A DNA stretch of 64,000 bases from Candidatus Woesearchaeota archaeon (GTDB taxonomy: Archaea > Nanobdellota > Nanobdellia > Woesearchaeales > GW2011-AR15): positions 134,991-198,990 of the forward strand of contig JAVZBY010000003.1 of the NCBI GenBank assembly GCA_038874655.1, read 5' to 3'. This document shows, piece by piece, positions 1-38,629 of the stretch; position 1 is the first letter of the stretch; each line of letters opens with the position of its first letter. The notes below the pieces were generated by a model, which was not told where the DNA came from, made no database searches, and saw nothing but the letters and a program-made list of their open reading frames with translations. A program made the position numbers and the translations under genes.

Positions 1-366
1 TGTTAAAACATTATCTCCTGGATTTAATAATGCACCTAATGCCATAGTTATTCCTTCTGAGCCACCAGAAGTTAAGACAACATCATTATAATCTACATTA
101 AGACCATTTCTTTTTGCCTCATTTGCAATTGCTTCTCTTGCTTCTTTTAATCCTAATGAATCTGCATAACTAGAACTCTTTTTCCAATTTTTTTCTACTG
201 CTTCAATTAAATGCTTAGGTGTTTCAAAATCATATTTTAATGGATCGCCAATATTCAAATAAATAATTTTTTTACCTTGACCTTCTAATCTTTGCGCTTC
301 AACTGCAACATCTCTTATAGCATATTGAATTTTCTCAGTCCTTTTTGCAGGAATTATTTCTTTCAT
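1..366 (-). CDS. class I/II aminotransferase (aspartate/alanine aminotransferase-like), N-terminal part only; gene continues beyond window start
   Basis: Own translation of the minus strand from ATG at 366..364: MKEIIPAKRTEKIQYAIRDVAVEAQRLEGQGKKIIYLNIGDPLKYDFETPKHLIEAVEKNWKKSSSYADSLGLKEAREAIANEAKRNG...VVLTSGGSEGI. This matches the N-terminal region of fold-type I PLP aminotransferases. Not in the ORF track because it is truncated. Confidence 0.65.
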   Translation of the reverse strand, partial: MKEIIPAKRTEKIQYAIRDVAVEAQRLEGQGKKIIYLNIGDPLKYDFETPKHLIEAVEKNWKKSSSYADSLGLKEAREAIANEAKRNGLNVDYNDVVLTSGGSEGITMALGALLNPGDNVLT

Positions 367-31784: not shown

Positions 31785-34049
31785 TTAATCAATATTATCC
31801 TTACTCATTAACAATGTATTACTAACAACACTAACACTTGAAAAAGCCATTGCTGTTCCTGCAATAATAGGGCTTAATAACAAAGGATAAAATAATCCTG
31901 TAGCAATTGGTATTCCTAAAACATTATAAAAAAATGCCCAAAATAAATTTTGCTTTATTTTTCTGATTGTTAATTTACTTAGATTTATTGCTTTAACAAA
32001 AGACATTAAATCATTATTCATTAAGATTATATCACCTGTTTCCATTGCTATATCTGTTCCTGATCTCATTACAACTCCAATATCTGCCTGAGCTAATGCT
32101 GGTGCATCATTTATTCCATCTCCTACCATAGCAACATATCCCTTTTTTTCAGATTGTAATTTTTTAACATAATTTAATTTTTCATCAGGTAAAACATTAG
32201 CAAAATAATTTATTTTTAACTCATTAGCAATTGATTTTGCTGTTTTTTCATTATCGCCTGTTATCATATAAATCTCCATCTCTTGTTCCTTTAATTTATT
32301 GATAACCTCAATAGCATTTTCTCTTAATTTGTCTTTAATTCCAATGACACCTAATAAACTAAAGTATTCTTTTTTGTTTTTTAGAGTTTTCTCAGCAACT
32401 AAAACTATTGTTTTTCCTTCATTTTGAAGTTTATCTAAAATTTCAAAATATTCTTTCTTTAAAACTATTTTATTTTTTTCTAAGAATTCTTTTATGAAAT
32501 TTAAACTTCCAACAAAATATTCCTTATTTAATATTACTCCTTTAATCCCTTTACCAGAAAAAGATTTAAAATTTTTAACATTATAATATTCTTTTGAAAT
32601 TTTTTCATACTCATTAAGAATTGCCTCTCCTAAAGGATGCTCTGAATTTTTTTCAATTGATGCAACAATCTTTAAAAAACCTTCTTTTGTTAATTTATAT
32701 TTATCATTAGAAAATATAATAACATCTGAAACAACTGGTTTTCCAACTGTTAATGTTCCTGTCTTATCAAAAACAACATACTTTACTTTATGCAATTTTT
32801 CTAATGCCTCAGCGCTTTTTATTAAAATACCTTTTTGAGCTCCTAAGCCAGTTCCAACCATTATTGCTGTTGGAGTAGCTAATCCTAATGCACATGGACA
32901 TGCAATTACTAAAACAGAAACAGAATTAATTATAGCCAATTCTAAATTTTTAAAAACAAAAAACCAAATACTAAAAGTTATTAAAGAGATTAATAAAACA
33001 ATAGGCACAAAATAACTTGAAATTAAGTCCGCATATCTTTGTATAGGTGCTTTTTTATTTTGTGCATCTTCTATTAATTTAATAATATTGGCTAATGTTG
33101 TATTTTCTCCAACAGAGGTAGCTTTAAATTTAAAACTTCCATTTTTATTAATAGTCCCTGCAAAAACCTTATCATTTATTTTCTTTTCAATTGGCAAATG
33201 CTCCCCAGTAAGCATACTTTCATCAACAAAAGAATTTCCTTCTATAATAAATCCATCAACTGGTATTTTTTCTCCTGGTTTCACAAATAAAACATCATTT
33301 TCTTTAACTTCATCAACACTAATTTTAATTTCTTGTCCATTTTTTATTAGAGTTGCAATTTTCGGACTTAGATCAATTAATTTTTTAATTGCTTCATTTG
33401 TTTTTGACTTTGCTTTTGCTTCTAAATATTTGCCTAATAGAACCAAAGTAATAATTATAGTTGATGCTTCAAAATACAAACCATCTCCACCAATTATCAT
33501 AGAATAAATACTGAAAAAATAAGCTGCACTTGTTCCTAATGCTATCAATGTATCCATATTAGCAGTTTTATTTCTAAGAGAAGCAAAAGCTCCTTTATAG
33601 AATCTCCTCCCAGAAATAAATTGCACTGGTGTTGCTAAATAAAATAAAATTAATTCTTGATAAGGAATCATTATTTTTAAAAACATAAATACCATACCTA
33701 TAATAAAAGAAGGAATTGCAAAAATACTTGAAAATATTAATAAAAACTTTAATTCCTTTAATTCTTTTTTCTGACTTATTTTTTCATCAAAATTAAAAAC
33801 AACTCTATAACCCAATGAATTAATTATATTAATTATTTTTTCATCATTAACCGAATTTCTATCATATTCAACAAATGCTTTTCCATTTGCATAATTAACA
33901 TTAACTTCATTAATGCCATTTATCTTTGTCAATGATCTTGTAATTAATAATGAACAACTAGCACAATGCATTCCTGTAATTGAAAATGTTTTTTTTACTA
34001 GATTTATATTATTAATGTTATTATTAAGATTATTACTATTATTTTTCAT
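31785..34049 (-). CDS. copA: copper-translocating P1B-type ATPase
   Basis: N-terminal HMA GMHCASC, CPC motif [27 protein letters not shown], and the TM MxxSS-like region. Confidence 0.9.
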
Positions 34050-34053
34050 TTTA

Positions 34054-34815
34054 TCATCTCAAATCTGATTCAATTAAAGGAATAAAATGAGTCATATCAA
34101 TAATAGAGTTAGTTTTATTTATAATACCAACAACATGCACATTTATTCCAAAAAAATCATCAATCTTATCACCTGATTTTTGAAATAATTTTTCTGAAAT
34201 CATCATACTTGCTTCATCAAATCCAATAACAACAGGATAATATGTTTTTCCGTTAATTATCTTCACATTATAATCTTTTATGTTGCCCTCCATTAACTCT
34301 AAATTGGGTTTATCTCCTAAACTATAACTATAAAATAATTTAGGCATTCCTTTATTTGTAAATTTAATAAAAAGTTTATTTTCAATTCCATTTATTTTAT
34401 AAAAATTTTCCTCAGATAAAAAATGCATATCATCAATCATTGTATTTGTTTTTTTCAATACGCCACCTATTTGGACATTTATGCCAAAAAAATTGTTTAT
34501 ATTATCATCAATTTTTGAAAATAGTTTTTCATTTTTCATCATTTCTGCCTCATTAAAACCTAAAACAATTTTATTATTTTCAATAGAAATTTTTCCATCA
34601 TTTAGTTTTAGTTTTTTTAATTCCTGCTCATTCACATAAGAAAAAACTTTCATTTCATTTTTCTCACTAAAATCTACTTTCATTTTTAAATTTTTAAAAA
34701 AATTTTCATCTATCATAACTGGTGAATATCTAAAATAAAAAAATGTGCCAATGAAAAGCATTATAGTTGTAATTATTATTGCAAATTTCATTAAAATCTG
34801 CCCCCGCAACCACAT
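34054..34815 (-). CDS. membrane-anchored exported protein with internal tandem duplication (unknown function)
   Basis: [36 protein letters not shown] is repeated as [36 protein letters not shown]. Confidence 0.45.
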
Positions 34816-35384
34816 CCTATTCTTGTAGTTTGATTATTATCTTGATTTGTTTTTTCTTCATTATTATCTTCTTTGGTGTTTTCATAAGATTGTGTTTTCA
34901 ATTCATTATTCTTTGACTCATCTATCTTTGAATCATCTGAAACAACATCAAAATAGCCAACATACATATTCATAGAGCATTGTATTCTTATTCTTCCTTC
35001 TTTTGTTGGAGTAAATTCTATAATATTATCTCCTTGCCTCACATTTTTAAAGACATTAAACTGAGGAATTACTATTGATCTTGCACAACCATAAACAGAA
35101 TTTAAATCAACCAGCATCTTAACAGGAACATCTTTTTTTAAAACACTCGGCTGTAATTCATAATTTCCTTTAGCATTTATAATTAAATTAACATTTTGAA
35201 AACCAAAATCTTGATTATTAATATTATTTAAATTTGCATTATTATTTACATTAATATTTTGATTAATACTTTGTTCTTTTGTGTTTTCTTTCAAAATATT
35301 AAAATCATTCATCAATATATTTCTTGAAGAGATAATTGTTAATAATAAAATAACAATTCCAAAGACAATAACGACTGTTTTCAT
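34791..35384 (-). CDS. exported cupredoxin-like domain protein with C-terminal CGCGG motif
   Basis: VKMLVDLNSVYGCARSIVIPQFN...IIEFTPTKEGRIRIQCSMNMYVGYFDVV resembles the cupredoxin_1 fold signature. N-terminal TM. Confidence 0.45.
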   Translation of the reverse strand: MKTVVIVFGIVILLLTIISSRNILMNDFNILKENTKEQSINQNINVNNNANLNNINNQDFGFQNVNLIINAKGNYELQPSVLKKDVPVKMLVDLNSVYGCARSIVIPQFNVFKNVRQGDNIIEFTPTKEGRIRIQCSMNMYVGYFDVVSDDSKIDESKNNELKTQSYENTKEDNNEEKTNQDNNQTTRIGCGCGGRF

Positions 35385-35433: not shown

Positions 35434-36330
35434 TCAAATAGCTAAAACTGACTTAGGACCAAAATAAATTATTAAAAGCAATAAAATCAAAAACAATGCT
35501 GAATATGAAGCTAATGTTAAAAAATCAATATTATTAATCTCATATTTTTTATTTTCTGCTAATTCTTCATAAATCATATATGATAAAAATAAAAAGATTA
35601 ATCCATTTAAGAAAAAATAAATCGGACTAAAGATATTCAAATTATCATTTAATAACATTACTGAAATCATTGCTCCCATTGTTCCTGCCATTATGCCAGA
35701 CATTGAACCCTGTAAAGCACCCATAATACCACAACATTGTCCAGTAATAAAACCAACAAAAAAACCTATTAACATTCCTACTAATGCTCCAATAAAAAAG
35801 CCATTTGTTATTCCAAAGATATAACCAATCATCATTCCTGACTGCATCCCAAAGGTCATTCCAATCATCATTCCTGTCATGCATGTAATTTTAGTTTTAT
35901 AACTTAAAAAGTGCCATAAAACACTTGAAATTATTGCTAAACTAAAATTCAAGTAAATAAAATATTGTAAATATTTTACAAAAGATAATTTAAAAGCAAA
36001 AACAAAAACAGCATTAACAAAAATTAAAACAAAAAATAAAGAAATAAAATATTTTATTAATTTGTATTCTAAAAAATATTTATGCTTATTTTCAATAAAA
36101 TCCCTAAATCTTTCTGAAAATGTTTTTCTTTCAAAGCTTAATGAAGCCCTATAACCTAATTCTTTTATTTTTTTGATATATTTTTCAGGTTTTTCAGATT
36201 CATCTATCTCAATATGATCATTATTAATTTTTACATTTTTATCATTACTAAATGCCTTTTCTAAAACTTTTACACAACTCTCGCATTCAATATCTGGAAT
36301 ATAAATTTTTGTTTTTTTCATATAAATCAA
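35434..36330 (-). CDS. HMA (CxxC) domain fused to a Met/Gly-rich polytopic membrane domain (Ctr-like MxxxM motifs)
   Basis: N-terminal IPDIECESCVKVLEKA ferredoxin-like HMA, then TM helices MTGMMIGMTFGMQSGMMIGYIFG...GQCCGIMGALQGSMSGIMAGTMGAM. Confidence 0.6.
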   Translation of the reverse strand: MIYMKKTKIYIPDIECESCVKVLEKAFSNDKNVKINNDHIEIDESEKPEKYIKKIKELGYRASLSFERKTFSERFRDFIENKHKYFLEYKLIKYFISLFFVLIFVNAVFVFAFKLSFVKYLQYFIYLNFSLAIISSVLWHFLSYKTKITCMTGMMIGMTFGMQSGMMIGYIFGITNGFFIGALVGMLIGFFVGFITGQCCGIMGALQGSMSGIMAGTMGAMISVMLLNDNLNIFSPIYFFLNGLIFLFLSYMIYEELAENKKYEINNIDFLTLASYSALFLILLLLIIYFGPKSVLAI

Positions 36331-36521
36331 CCTAAAACTTTATAGCCTTCATCCTCAATTATTTTTTTAATATCCTCAAAAGAGATTTTTTTATCATCAA
36401 ACTCAACATCTGCTTTTCCAATAACTACATTTGCTTTAACTCCTTTTTCTTCCAAAGCAATCTTTATCAAACTAACACAACTTTTACAATGCATACCATT
36501 AATAATCATAGTTTTTTTCAT
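36327..36521 (-). CDS. copZ: copper chaperone
   Basis: 64 aa, INGMHCKSCVSLI HMA fold. ATGA overlap with the downstream gene. Confidence 0.85.
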   Translation of the reverse strand: MKKTMIINGMHCKSCVSLIKIALEEKGVKANVVIGKADVEFDDKKISFEDIKKIIEDEGYKVLG

Positions 36522-36632: not shown

Positions 36633-37202
36633 TCAATTCCTCAATATCACAACATTAGTCATTCCTCTTCTCTTTCTTTCAATTAAACCCTTTCCTTCTA
36701 ATTTATCTAAAATCCTGGTTATTTTTACTTTGCTATAATTAGTTTTCTCAACCAATTCTGATTGAAATATTGTTCCTTGTGATTCTACTATTTTATCATA
36801 TACTAATTTTTCATCAGGCAATAAATCCAAAATTCTTTTTTTTATTATTTCTTTTTCTGTTTTTTCAGATTCTTCATTTTTTTCAATAATAAAATTTCTT
36901 TTAAACTTGCTCTCAAACAAAAAATAAATTCCTAAAGCAATCAAAGAAACAGATAAAACACTTCCAAAAATATACACTAAAAAATTTCTGTTTTCATGCA
37001 AGCAAGTTCCATCATCTAAAAAACAAGTTCCTTCATTTTTAACATATAGATTAATATAATAATCTTCTCTTGCTTTAAACATAAAAAGCATAACAGCAAG
37101 TAAAATCCCAATAAAAATAACAACAAAAGCAAAATTTTTATTCATAATAATTTGTAAAATATTTAAATTTAAAAAAGTTATTTTTAATTTCTCTAAAATC
37201 AT
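36633..37202 (-). CDS. membrane-anchored winged-helix transcriptional regulator with extracytoplasmic Cys pair
   Basis: Two TM segments flanking CFLDDGTCLHENRNF. C-terminal wHTH SELVEKTNYSKVKITRILDKLEGKGLIERKRRG. Confidence 0.5.
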   Translation of the reverse strand: MILEKLKITFLNLNILQIIMNKNFAFVVIFIGILLAVMLFMFKAREDYYINLYVKNEGTCFLDDGTCLHENRNFLVYIFGSVLSVSLIALGIYFLFESKFKRNFIIEKNEESEKTEKEIIKKRILDLLPDEKLVYDKIVESQGTIFQSELVEKTNYSKVKITRILDKLEGKGLIERKRRGMTNVVILRN

Positions 37203-37226: not shown

Positions 37227-37868
37227 TTAGTCAAAATAAAAATTAAATCTTTTTTCATCACACATTAAGCCTATAATAACATTAGGACTATCCCATTTTA
37301 TTTGATTATAAGATTCAATATCCTGATTAGAAAAAATACAATGTAAAATAGGATGTGTATGTAATTCAATTAGAGTTTTATCATCACAAATTTCAGATAC
37401 TACTTTATAAACATCACTTCCATAAATTTTTGGTATATAAATTCCTTTAACATTATAAACTTGATAACCTAAATTTTGCTCATTGGAGATATTACCATAT
37501 AAACACATCTTAATTTCTGATTTTTGATTTTGTCTAAATATAGAAAGTAATGCATTGTAATTTTCTTTCCCAATGATAATTTTCTTATTATTCAAGATTA
37601 TTTCATAATTATCATTAATTTCAGTACTTATAATTTTTCCAAATAATATATTTAATATATGAAATCCCAACAAATTACTAATAAGCAAAAAAATAATAAA
37701 AAATGTGATTAAAATAATATAGGTTTTTTTAAGAATTTTTTTTAATTCTGATTCTTCTTGTTGTGATTCTAAAATTTCATCTTCTAACTCAATTAAATTA
37801 TATTCCAAATTTTCTTCAGATTTATTCAAATTCTTTAAATTATCTTCATTATTTTGTTTTTTGCTCAT
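37227..37868 (-). CDS. membrane-anchored JAMM/MPN+ motif protein (putative metalloprotease/deubiquitinase-like)
   Basis: E...HTHPILHCIFSNQD = HxHx7Sx2D JAMM motif with upstream Glu. N-terminal TM ILITFFIIFLLISNLLGF. Start taken at MSKKQ. Confidence 0.5.
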   Translation of the reverse strand: MSKKQNNEDNLKNLNKSEENLEYNLIELEDEILESQQEESELKKILKKTYIILITFFIIFLLISNLLGFHILNILFGKIISTEINDNYEIILNNKKIIIGKENYNALLSIFRQNQKSEIKMCLYGNISNEQNLGYQVYNVKGIYIPKIYGSDVYKVVSEICDDKTLIELHTHPILHCIFSNQDIESYNQIKWDSPNVIIGLMCDEKRFNFYFD

Positions 37869-38629
37869 AAATAAACACTCAATAATATAATTAAACCTAA
37901 TACAAAACAATATATTGAGAAATAACTAAATTTGTTGGTTTTAATAATTCGTAGTAAAAATTTCAATGATAAATATCCAGAAATCATTGAAAACAAAACT
38001 CCAATAAATGCAAAACTTAAATTTTCAATTTGCCCAATATTTCTAATTTCTAAAATTGTTGCACCAAAAATTGGTGGGATAGCCATTAAAAAAGAAAATT
38101 TTGCTGCTTCCTCTTGCTTTATTCCTTGAATTAATCCTGTTGAAATTGTAATTCCTGATCTAGAAACACCAGGTAAAATTGCAATTGCTTGACTTACACC
38201 CATTAAAAATGTGTTTAAAAAATTTAAATTCTTATCTTTTATTTTTGGATATTTTGATAAAAATAAAACTATTGAAGTAAATATCCATGCAAAACCTACA
38301 AAAGCTAAATTTGAAAATGCTCTCTCTATATAATCATTTAAAAAAAAACCAACTAATGTAATAGGAATTGATGCAAAAATTAACATTAAAGCTAAATTTA
38401 TATATTTCTTTTCTCTTTTTAAAACACCTAAAATTAATTCTAAAATTTCCTTTCTAAAAACAAATAAAATTACTAATAAAGAACCAAAATGCAACAACAC
38501 ATCAAAAATTATTGGTTGCTTTATTTTAAAAATAGTTTGAAACAAAACTAAATGTCCTGAACTACTTATAGGAAGCCACTCAGTAATGCCTTGTATAATA
38601 CCTAAAATTATTGCTTCAATTAGATTCAT
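37865..38629 (-). CDS. uppP: undecaprenyl-diphosphatase (BacA/UppP family)
   Basis: GIIQGITEWLPISSSGHL and PGVSRSGITIS motifs. Confidence 0.85.
   Translation of the reverse strand: MNLIEAIILGIIQGITEWLPISSSGHLVLFQTIFKIKQPIIFDVLLHFGSLLVILFVFRKEILELILGVLKREKKYINLALMLIFASIPITLVGFFLNDYIERAFSNLAFVGFAWIFTSIVLFLSKYPKIKDKNLNFLNTFLMGVSQAIAILPGVSRSGITISTGLIQGIKQEEAAKFSFLMAIPPIFGATILEIRNIGQIENLSFAFIGVLFSMISGYLSLKFLLRIIKTNKFSYFSIYCFVLGLIILLSVYL

Follow-up and report, generated by a model that had tools for sequence, protein, structure and literature searches.

A protein encoded in the window, by which we mean the whole 64,000-nucleotide stretch of DNA analyzed here, joins a true HMA/CopZ-type domain to a methionine-rich membrane domain that defines an undescribed family. 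We refer to it as the HMA-7TM protein and propose that it probably serves as a transmembrane relay for Cu(I)/Ag(I), be it outward or inward. A more specific reading, whose chances we put only a little short of even, is that the family constitutes an unrecognized class of Cu(I)/Ag(I) transporters, in which a single seven-helix subunit with two Met ladders acts as a chaperone-to-chaperone "wire" and a CupA-type cupredoxin works at the outside. On this same reading, and with the same reserve, the class would be unrelated in sequence and fold to the Ctr, CopD, P1B, RND, and MFS copper transporters. The features on which our analysis rests are compiled in Table 1.

Table 1. Position, strand, and supporting evidence of the HMA-7TM gene, its domains and motifs, and its neighbors in the window.
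Feature	Position	Strand	Basis or comment
HMA-7TM gene	35434..36321	-	295 aa from ATG; ORF, homologues, AF2 model
HMA domain (ferredoxin-like, CopZ-type), residues 1-60	36142..36321	-	Pfam, homologues, Foldseek; predicted cytoplasmic
CxxC motif C13/C16 (CESC, residues 13-16)	36274..36285	-	invariant among homologues
Basic juxtamembrane amphipathic helix (SFERKTFSERFRDFIENKHKY)	36076..36138	-	model helix 68-77
Seven-helix membrane domain, residues 83-287	35461..36075	-	model helices, mfDCA couplings, K+R counts; predicted N-in, C-out
TM3 (CMTGMMIGMTFGMQSGMMIGYIFGITN)	35803..35883	-	conservation, helical wheel
CC pair and TM5 (CCGIMGALQGSMSGIMAGTMGAMISVMLLN)	35647..35736	-	conservation, helical wheel
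Acidic cluster E252, E253, E256, cytoplasmic end of TM6	35554..35568	-	conservation
Stand-alone CopZ-type HMA chaperone, 64 aa, directly upstream of the HMA-7TM gene	36327..36521	-	Pfam HMA 3.8e-9, NCBIfam CopZ 7e-13
Membrane-anchored CupA-like cupredoxin, 197 aa	34791..35384	-	PDB CupA 4F2E/2MRY E=7.2e-10; predicted extracytoplasmic
P1B-1 (Cu+/Ag+) P-type ATPase CopA, N-terminal HMA	31785..34049	-	Pfam E1-E2_ATPase, Hydrolase, HMA
Membrane-bound winged-helix regulator (DUF7343/MarR-like)	36633..37202	-	Pfam DUF7343 1e-11

The ORF list of the window contains the reading frame on the minus strand at 35434..36330, and homologues that match it across its full length establish it as a real gene. 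It is not a chance ORF, since we recovered 772 full-length homologues (E<=1e-3), mostly with 44-55% identity, and the profile of the membrane domain alone gathered at least 694 clusters at 50% identity. The N-termini of the homologues match at the ATG at 36321, which is therefore more likely to be the start codon than the TTG at 36330; the latter overlaps the TGA stop codon of the upstream copZ gene, as TTGA. Translation of copZ and the HMA-7TM gene is probably coupled. A nested ORF (35645..35884) was rightly dismissed in the initial annotation but wrongly described there as antisense; it lies on the same minus strand in a different frame, and we reject it as well, because the conserved frame is that of the HMA-7TM protein. 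The Met/Gly-rich peptide with a CC pair quoted in the initial annotation (GQCCGIMGALQGSMSGIMAGTMGAM) is found in it, and its core segment (residues 144-225) contains 14 Met and 18 Gly among 82 residues. The host genome belongs to the Woesearchaeota (DPANN) and has a GC content of 25%, against which the high Gly content of the core goes.

The N-terminal domain had been labeled HMA on the strength of its residue pattern and the CESC motif, and this assignment holds despite a Pfam HMA (PF00403) score of 19.3 bits (E=0.0015) that does not reach the gathering threshold of 24.8. C13 and C16 are unchanged in an alignment of 39 homologues, the CxxC motif sits at the junction of loop 1 and helix 1 as the HMA family requires, and PF00403 appears in the precomputed annotation of about half of the full-length homologues. 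The AF2 model gives the secondary structure E-H-E-E-H-(E), and its comparison by Foldseek yielded a probability of 1.0 to MerP (1osd), ATP7A MBD4 (2aw0), a CopZ-like protein (2l3m), and others. Between this domain and the membrane lies the basic amphipathic helix; its stretch carries a mean of 4.2 K+R, and E70 and R71 are invariant among close homologues. It is possible that this helix offers a docking platform on the cytoplasmic face.

The structure of the HMA-7TM protein was predicted as a monomer with a pLDDT of 90 and a pTM of 0.79, the membrane bundle scoring 87-90. The prediction and the composition confirm a Met/Gly-rich helical bundle, but the number of transmembrane helices, originally given as five to six, is seven in the model, preceded by the juxtamembrane helix, and the coevolution couplings agree. 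These mfDCA couplings are consistent in helix register for both parallel and antiparallel pairs and place TM6 at the center. Loops assigned to the inside carry 9.3 K+R, as opposed to 1.9 in those assigned to the outside. Since the positive-inside rule and the fusion proteins described below point to the same topology, we predict a cytoplasmic HMA domain and an extracytoplasmic CupA-like domain. An open passage between the Met ladders is predicted from sequence geometry and the couplings. No evidence for an internal duplication emerged when TM3-4 was compared with TM5-6 by hhalign (probability 2%), and we discounted a match between TM3 and TM4 (95%), which reflects only the shared GxxxG period of antiparallel helices.

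Pfam and NCBIfam scans of the membrane domain, conducted for the window protein and, with Pfam at E<=1, for 22 diverse members, detected no known family. The sole matches were the compositional Gly-zipper_YMGG and a weak ECF_trnsprt. In PDB sequence searches with the single sequence and with a profile (E<=10), only HMA domains and Gly-rich low-complexity noise were matched. Likewise, Foldseek searches of the PDB with the full model matched the HMA domain and nothing else, and those with the membrane-only model found nothing at E<1 (best query TM-score 0.26). A description of the family was not found in a literature search on copper, Met-rich, and HMA proteins of DPANN, Woesearchaeota, and Nanoarchaeota. 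The suggestion to look for homologues in other small-genome archaea proved fruitful: where members are named, they belong to DPANN archaea or, in a few cases, to CPR bacteria, and each is annotated as hypothetical.

We computed residue conservation over 312 sequences and found the two Met ladders to be 98-100% preserved. On TM3, M148/151/152/155/159 line one helix face within a helical-wheel arc of at most 100 degrees and span 16.5 A (conservation: M151 and M152, 0.99 each; M155 and M159, 1.00 each). A Gly zipper runs along this helix, C147 (0.86) lies at its cytoplasmic end, and N173-G174 form the outer turn, with N173 conserved at 0.97. The ladder on TM5 (M200/207/211/215/218/222) occupies an arc of 80 degrees and, with a length of about 33 A, covers the whole membrane depth; its conservation is 0.98 for M200, 0.99 for M207, and 1.00 for the remaining four. 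C196 (0.75) and C197 (0.89) are placed at the cytoplasmic end of TM5. D226 and E253 are each D or E at 0.96, and E253 is invariant in a diverse alignment. All core motifs of the family are present in the window protein: GMMxGMTxGM (TM3), the TNG turn, CCGxMGxxxGxMxGxMxGxMGxM (TM5), and the E that ends TM6. The membrane Cys residues are not universal, since P0134 and P0264 lack them at either position and P0139 has only the first. We infer that these Met and Cys residues bind metal.

The genes that surround the HMA-7TM gene strongly back a role in Cu(I) handling, as the initial annotation had supposed. Their order in the window is copZ, HMA-7TM, cupA-like, a gene of unknown function, and copA, and a synteny survey of loci from 80 species shows how widely this arrangement is kept. 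An HMA domain is fused to or adjoins the membrane domain in 72 of the 80 loci, a cupA-like gene follows within 700 nt downstream in 72, a copA gene of the Cu(I) type lies on the same strand in 67, and a second HMA is present upstream in 49. The same copper module also surrounds distant stand-alone members of the family and one member from a CPR bacterium. The CupA-like neighbor possesses the Cu(I) ligands C-x35-CxMxM, aligned with the ligand Cys and Met of CupA 4F2E/2MRY, and a C-terminal GCGCGG tail; CxMxM recurs in 70 of the 72 cupA-like genes beside orthologues. The anchors of these proteins carry 2.6 K/R on the N-terminal side and 1.2 on the other, a bias for N-in. By regular expression we found every signature motif sought in CopA: CPC, N(x)6YN(x)4P, M(x)2SS(x)5N, and DKTGT, the first three expected in TM6, TM7, and TM8 (there as M(x)2SS(x)5[NS]), respectively. 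The DUF7343/MarR-like protein, encoded in 35 of the 80 loci, is likely the copper-responsive regulator of the cluster; it has a CX6CLH loop between two TM helices that is conserved in most of the orthologues listed, and its true start is probably an internal Met at about 37145. PDB searches with the 253-aa and 227-aa proteins of the neighborhood returned no match.

In several relatives, these partners are physically joined. P0127 is a CxxC-HMA-7TM-CupA protein in one polypeptide, P0239 carries the CupA-like domain at the C-terminus of the membrane domain, and P0123 has one or two HMA domains at its N-terminus. In a further relative, represented by one cluster whose contig measures 2 kb, an HMA domain and TM1-5/6 are fused to a HisKA_3/HATPase histidine kinase; since the kinase follows TM6, that end of TM6 must be cytoplasmic.

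The version of the relay that we favor, tentatively and with rather less than even confidence, is directed outward. The CopZ-like HMA domain would sit in the cytoplasm beside a soft/acidic ligand cluster at the inner membrane face, made up of C147, C196, C197, often H137, and E253. From there, the TM3 and TM5 Met ladders would cross a compact seven-helix bundle packed around TM6 and finish at an outer mouth with D226, N173, and often H227. The presumed acceptor is the membrane-anchored CupA-like cupredoxin with its bis-thiolate/Met2 Cu(I) site and Cys-rich tail, which is the product of the next gene or, in some relatives, a C-terminal fusion. Cu(I) would move by ligand exchange from the CxxC motif to the Cys cluster, along Met2-3 sites that follow one another at intervals of about one helical turn, and on to the outer chaperone, and thus from chaperone to chaperone between cytoplasm and cell surface. 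The pathway would work beside the ATP-driven CopA in a copper-detoxification operon, and export may be proton-coupled via E253 and D226. Transport, its direction, and its energy source are what we infer from the protein and its partners; the genuine HMA domain with its invariant CxxC, the high-confidence seven-helix model with agreeing couplings, the ladders (98-100%), Cys residues (75-89%), and E253/D226 (96%) conserved over the 312 sequences, the synteny and fusions with HMA, CupA-like, and CopA partners, the topology indicators, the true CupA homology of the neighbor, and the P1B-1 Cu+/Ag+ signature of CopA all argue for the relay. Precedents exist for its individual steps. Hand-off from chaperone to transporter is the rule for CopZ and CopA (PMC7558416), and in the RND protein CusA, Cu(I)/Ag(I) is proposed to move stepwise along a ladder of Met pairs and triads from the cytoplasmic side outward (PMC7558416). 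CusA, however, is a trimeric 12-TM RND protein driven by protons; its periplasmic domains are large, and neither its size nor its fold or sequence relates it to the HMA-7TM protein. The CupA-like neighbor resembles CupA of S. pneumoniae in its cupredoxin fold, its aligned Cys...CxMxM ligands, its N-terminal membrane anchor, and its linkage to CopA. Pneumococcal CupA has been described as working on the cytoplasmic side, where it supplies a cupredoxin-type metal-binding domain of CopA with Cu(I), whereas the anchor charges and C-terminal fusions of the archaeal protein point to an extracytoplasmic site, the archaeal CopA has an ordinary HMA metal-binding domain, and the CupA-like protein bears the additional CGCGG tail.

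Against outward transport stand the lack of a recognizable energy-coupling module in the HMA-7TM protein, the presence of CopA as an exporter that makes the need for a second one not obvious, and the exceptions among the Cys ligands (P0134, P0264, P0139). The inside-negative potential and an arrangement in which thioether sites of low affinity end, at the cytoplasm, in thiolates of high affinity would moreover favor passive inward flow, as in Ctr1; such flow is thermodynamically at least as easy to justify as export. We consider the same relay running in reverse, as a passive importer of the Ctr1, CopC/CopD, or MerP/MerT kind, to be unlikely but still the most serious competitor. Cu(I) would be captured outside by the CupA-like protein with its Cys tail and travel inward along the Met ladder, down the membrane potential; the cytoplasmic Cys cluster and HMA domain would then take it over and hand it to CopZ, either for controlled delivery, for sensing, or for CopA to export it again. 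The absence of an energy-coupling domain fits this route, as do the succession of ligands from membrane Met through Cys at the cytoplasmic mouth to CxxC, which is that of Ctr1, and the capture domain anchored beside the conduit or fused to it. MerP/MerT is an importer encoded within a resistance operon. MerT, known also from MerTP fusions, further resembles the HMA-7TM protein as a small membrane protein with a vicinal Cys pair (here C196-C197 at the cytoplasmic start of TM5, missing from some members), with an outer metal-binding domain on one side and an HMA domain in the cytoplasm (NmerA) on the other, and ligand-exchange transfer is common to both schemes. It differs in being Cys-based and in having three TM helices, no Met ladder, and an HMA domain rather than a cupredoxin as its outer partner; the membrane domain studied here gave no Pfam or NCBIfam Mer match to MerT, MerF, or MerC, and its locus has an ATPase of the Cu+ type and no MerA. 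PcoC/PcoD and the YcnJ fusion of B. subtilis are likewise importer precedents inside resistance operons: in CopC/CopD, too, an inner-membrane copper permease has an outer beta-sandwich copper chaperone as its separate or fused partner, and both are encoded within copper-resistance clusters (PMC7558416). CopD, however, has eight TM helices, His ligands, and an unrelated sequence (the HMA-7TM protein has no PF05425 match), CopC binds Cu(II)/Cu(I) via His and Met, in contrast to the CupA-like partner, and a cytoplasmic HMA domain is missing from CopC/CopD. Import would also create a futile cycle with the co-transcribed CopA exporter and CopZ, and DPANN fermenters probably have no large copper demand. 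Tandem N-terminal HMA domains mark exporting P1B ATPases, and the co-oriented, tight packing of the HMA-7TM gene with copZ and copA again speaks for export.

Other functions seem less probable than transport in either direction. A role as a Cu(I)/Ag(I) binding module embedded in the membrane, serving as sensor, buffer, or scaffold, is in our judgment improbable; such a module might, for instance, inform the HMA domain or the regulator of copper in the membrane or outside the cell, or hold the CupA-like protein by CopA. With its many Met residues, the protein could accommodate several Cu(I) ions, the kinase fusion suggests that Met/Cys helices can act as a sensor domain, and the membrane-bound regulator with its conserved CX6CLH loop accompanies 35 of the 80 loci; the kinase fusion is, however, that one cluster on a short contig, and ladders across the full membrane with partners on both sides in one polypeptide (P0127) fit through-transfer better. 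Far less likely still is a thiol-disulfide electron relay akin to CcdA/DsbD, in which electrons would pass via the HMA CxxC and the membrane Cys to keep the CupA-like Cys ligands reduced. Such a relay could account for the Cys at 13/16, 147, and 196/197, for an outer partner that relies on Cys thiolates and has a CGCGG tail, and for the DsbA-like and VKOR genes that adjoin two related clusters. The membrane Cys are, however, located at cytoplasmic helix ends rather than mid-membrane and are 75-89% conserved, while the redox-inert Met are 98-100% conserved, and Pfam yielded no match to the DsbD or CcdA families. Finally, the label "Ctr-like," if taken literally as membership in the Ctr/SLC31 copper channels, has practically no chance of being right. 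MxxxM occurs seven times and GxxxG fifteen times in the sequence, and eukaryotic Ctr1/SLC31 proteins share MxxxM thioether ligands, GxxxG packing, the absence of an ATPase module, and Cys ligands on the cytoplasmic side that pass Cu(I) to CxxC chaperones. The likeness in motifs is convergent and compositional and insufficient for membership, and the resemblance is confined to the use of MxxxM-type thioether ligands, with no support for kinship. Ctr1 is a trimer of three-helix subunits whose symmetry axis carries two Met rings, as opposed to a seven-helix bundle with ladders of five to six Met on two helices and covalently attached chaperone domains; no Pfam Ctr (PF04145) match was found in the 22 members, no PDB sequence match to the membrane domain, and, in the proposed Foldseek check of the AF2 model, no solved fold matched the membrane part, Ctr1 included. 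No Ctr protein is known from a prokaryote (PMC7558416).

If the proposed wire is real, it would be a hallmark of ultra-small DPANN archaea and of some CPR bacteria, and CupA-type cupredoxins would act outside the cell in these lineages. To our knowledge, only few membrane families are known to move copper, namely P1B ATPases, Ctr, CopD, CcoA-type MFS proteins, RND CusA, and the outer-membrane CopB/PcoB. A compact protein, some 230 aa long, whose Met ladder runs the full length and which has chaperones at both ends would represent a new solution to the same chemical problem. It would, moreover, be a very tractable model of how Cu(I) crosses a membrane by ligand exchange. Several hundred clusters now called hypothetical in DPANN and CPR organisms, groups with a little-known surface and membrane biology, would acquire a function. 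The CupA type of chaperone, described from a few streptococci, would be extended to archaea, where it probably occupies another cellular compartment.

The ORF listing of the window confirms, with small corrections, the frame picked out in the initial annotation, which lies on the minus strand; in its product, called X below, an HMA domain precedes a Met-rich membrane domain, modelled with seven TM helices where the initial annotation had five to six. The TTG start candidate at 36330 shares the sequence TTGA with the TGA that ends the 64-aa gene upstream, while an ATG at 36321, nine bases further on, yields a 295-aa product whose N-terminus agrees with that of all homologues (MKxxIYVPDIEC); residues of X were counted from this ATG. 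Residues 13-16 of X form the CESC motif noted initially, and the Met/Gly/Cys-rich peptide quoted there was found as well. The core of X (residues 144-225) holds 18 Gly and 14 Met in 82 residues, a composition that opposes the mutational bias of the window with its GC content of 24.9%. A nested 79-aa ORF, previously called antisense and dismissed, lies on the same strand as X; the strong conservation of the long frame still justifies its rejection, and we attribute it to the repetitive sequence of the core.

Searches of 5.8 billion proteins with X as the query gave 772 matches at E<=1e-3, and the match at 100% comes from a Candidatus Woesearchaeota MAG. The best 120 of the 772 stem from Woesearchaeota/Nanoarchaeota MAGs, are nearly all about 300-310 aa long (five are longer, with 318-445 aa), are mostly 44-55% identical to X across the whole length, and are labelled 'hypothetical' or 'heavy-metal-associated domain-containing protein'. 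With a profile restricted to the membrane part, 694 clusters at E<=1e-3 (417 at E<=1e-10) were retrieved from 1.84 billion cluster representatives; in many of the 694, the membrane domain stands alone and measures 215-250 aa. Where a source is named, it is Pacearchaeota, Nanoarchaeota, Woesearchaeota, an unclassified 'bacterium' or Candidatus Magasanikbacteria, and every such protein is annotated as 'hypothetical' except the Magasanikbacteria one, which is titled after its fused cupredoxin domain. A relative is encoded in 315 genomes of GTDB species representatives, and the best 80 of these are DPANN archaea throughout. The X gene is thus no chance ORF but part of a large family without a name. 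Many GTDB contigs carrying it (the loci L010, L011, L014, L015 and others) bear the title 'uncultured Methanosarcinales archaeon'; it was probably submitted as a placeholder or by mistake, since the closest relatives and the gene content are those of Woesearchaeota/Nanoarchaeota.

No model in Pfam or NCBIfam covers the membrane domain, a sequence comparison of X with the PDB gave no meaningful match, and our literature search found no description of the family. AlphaFold2 modelled X with 39 homologues at a pLDDT of 90 (pTM 0.79) and the membrane part separately at 86.7 (pTM 0.84). Foldseek of the full model against the PDB matched the HMA domain alone (probability 1.0), and the membrane part on its own matched no solved fold (best E 1.4, query TM-score <=0.26). 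On the membership tests that were run, X can therefore be assigned neither to Ctr1, CopD, MerT/MerF or CcdA nor to any further family that is solved or curated. The family is uncharacterised, with no detectable relationship to known transporters; the earlier description as 'Ctr-like' holds only as an analogy.

In a mean-field DCA of 312 family sequences (Meff 270), the top couplings fall into registers that agree with one another. TM2 and TM6 run parallel (119-229, 123-233, 130-243, 137-247), as do TM3 and TM5 (156-203, 161-204, 167-220); TM3-TM6 (160-239, 164-236, 167-232), TM5-TM6, TM4-TM5, TM4-TM7 and TM1-TM2 are antiparallel pairs. TM6 is therefore central, with TM3 and TM5 side by side. 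No internal duplication was detected. In the same 312 sequences, conservation reaches 96-100% in TM3 and the following turn (G150, M151, M152, G154, M155, G158, M159, G162, G166, G170, N173, G174) and in TM5 (G198, M200, G201, G205, M207, G209, M211, G213, M215, G216, M218, M222). The ladder Met of either helix keep within an 80-100 degree arc, over a length of 16.5 A in TM3 and 33 A in TM5; together with the TM3-TM5 register, this places thioether pairs at successive depths. At the cytoplasmic ends of the two helices lie C147 (86% conserved), C196 (75%) and C197 (89%), at the outer ends N173 and D226 (96% D/E); E253 is 96% D/E and H137 72% conserved.

Among the loops of X, those assigned to the inside carry 9.3 K+R (5.2 without the juxtamembrane helix) and the outside-assigned ones 1.9. 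In family member P0235 (JGI contig, 2 kb), HMA, TM1-5 and one extra TM helix are followed by a HisKA_3/HATPase histidine kinase, which must be cytoplasmic and so puts the end of TM6 inside and that of TM7 outside. In members P0239 and P0127, TM7 is followed at once by a Cupredoxin_1 domain, without an added hydrophobic segment; P0127 joins a CxxC without further domain, X and a CupA-like part in one chain, and P0239 is X plus a CupA-like part, encoded by a Magasanikbacteria (CPR) genome. Hence the HMA domain lies inside, and the partner fused to the C-terminus lies outside. Two tandem HMA domains precede X in P0123.

Genes in and next to the cluster, and segments of X
Feature	Position	Strand	Remark
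Membrane-bound wHTH regulator	36633..37202	-	first in cluster gene order
copZ	36327..36521	-	between regulator and X
X	35434..36330	-	
Nested 79-aa ORF	35645..35884	-	other frame of the Met/Gly-rich core of X; MHDRNDDWNDLWDAV...
197-aa CupA-like protein	34791..35384	-	after X
253-aa protein	34054..34815	-	membrane-anchored; between cupA-like gene and copA
copA	31785..34049	-	last in cluster gene order
227-aa protein	37227..37910	-	
HMA domain of X	residues 1-60		AlphaFold2 model
Basic amphipathic helix	residues 68-77		AlphaFold2 model
TM1, TM2, TM3, TM4	residues 83-110, 114-140, 147-173, 175-197		AlphaFold2 model
TM5, TM6, TM7	residues 199-225, 228-255, 267-287		AlphaFold2 model

CopA displays the P1B-1 Cu+/Ag+ signature (CPC, N(x)6YN(x)4P, M(x)2SS(x)5N, DKTGT). 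The 197-aa protein matches PDB 4F2E/2MRY (E=7.2e-10) and the CopA MBD 4F2F (E=0.002), and its Cu(I) ligands Cys...CxMxM align with those of CupA; these alignments identify it as an S. pneumoniae CupA homologue, encoded here in a DPANN archaeon. CupA itself, a cupredoxin anchored in the membrane, serves as a Cu(I) chaperone and has two sites, the bis-thiolate S1 and the Met-rich S2 (PMC7558416). Of 80 species loci, 72 have an HMA domain that is part of X or directly adjoins it, and 49 have another HMA gene immediately upstream. Downstream of X, in the same orientation and at most 700 nt away, 72 loci have a CupA-like gene; CopA is on the strand of X in 67 (56 of the 61 loci having >3.5 kb of downstream sequence), and the regulator was found in 35. 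Individual contexts agree, also those of distant members, namely an X that stands alone and an X-CupA fusion from a CPR bacterium adjoining HMA and a P-type ATPase.

C-x35-CxMxM occurs in 70 of the 72 CupA-like neighbours, an N-terminal hydrophobic anchor in 68 and a CGC-containing C-terminal tail in 41; the window protein combines anchor, Asn-rich linker, C-x35-CxMxM and the tail ...IGCGCGGRF. With 2.6 K/R before the anchors vs 1.2 after, the charge bias indicates an N-in, C-out orientation. Anchor charges and fusions together suggest that the CupA-like domain is outside the cell, whereas the described role of CupA is cytoplasmic. DsbA-like thioredoxin-fold (locus L007, 8914..9657) and VKOR (L008, 4155..4586) genes adjoin two related clusters, a hint that the thiol redox state of the Cys-rich CupA-like proteins is maintained outside the cytoplasm. 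A larger copper island at L002 (6938..8761) has two Cupredoxin_1, DUF411 (which we take to be a CopG-like family), DUF302 and SHOCT genes downstream of X.

The regulator (orthologues in L010-L086) is a winged-helix DUF7343/MarR-like protein in which two TM helices flank the conserved loop GxCxLxDGxCLH (CX6CLH), and looks like a one-component sensor of metal outside the cytoplasm; its annotated ATG is probably too far upstream, because orthologues begin at the equivalent of the internal MNKNF. The 253-aa protein, present in only 10 of the 80 loci, is internally duplicated (...GF(N/D)EA(E/S)MM..EKLF.K..D.I..FFGINV...G(V/I)..KTN..ID..HF) and matched nothing in Pfam or the PDB. Pfam and PDB sequence searches likewise returned nothing for the 227-aa protein, in which HTHPILHCIFSNQD fits the JAMM/MPN metalloprotease motif HxHx7Sx2D.

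Evidence from the observed architecture, conservation, topology indicators, synteny and fusions converges on X being a Cu(I)/Ag(I) relay, whose metal binding, translocation, direction and energy source we infer; the copper conduit proposed initially is well supported by independent evidence. The cytoplasmic CxxC domain would give Cu(I)/Ag(I) to a Cys/Glu cluster at the inner mouth, the metal would cross the bilayer along the two Met ladders, and it would arrive at the outer mouth beside the extracytoplasmic CupA-like chaperone. A few members lack the Cys at the cytoplasmic ends of TM3 and TM5 partly or wholly (P0134 and P0264 have none at either position, P0139 has the first only); the Met residues are retained in every case. 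It is highly improbable that X is a CcdA-like redox relay; a role as sensor or scaffold is less far-fetched, yet also improbable.

Regarding direction, we tentatively favor export, at somewhat less than even confidence. It is favored by the operon logic (copZ and copA controlled by a putative metal-responsive regulator), by the one or two N-terminal HMA domains in a P1B-like layout and by the precedent of CusA, with its outward stepping along Met. Import, which we rank slightly below export and consider rather unlikely, would suit the lack of an energy module in X, a membrane potential that is negative inside, and the Met-to-Cys ligand order, which is that of Ctr1; moreover, resistance operons can hold importers (e.g., CopC/CopD, YcnJ, MerP/MerT). 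Chaperone-coupled Cu(I) transfer via Met and Cys ligands is a principle already known; there is a substantial chance that the X family represents a truly new transporter class.
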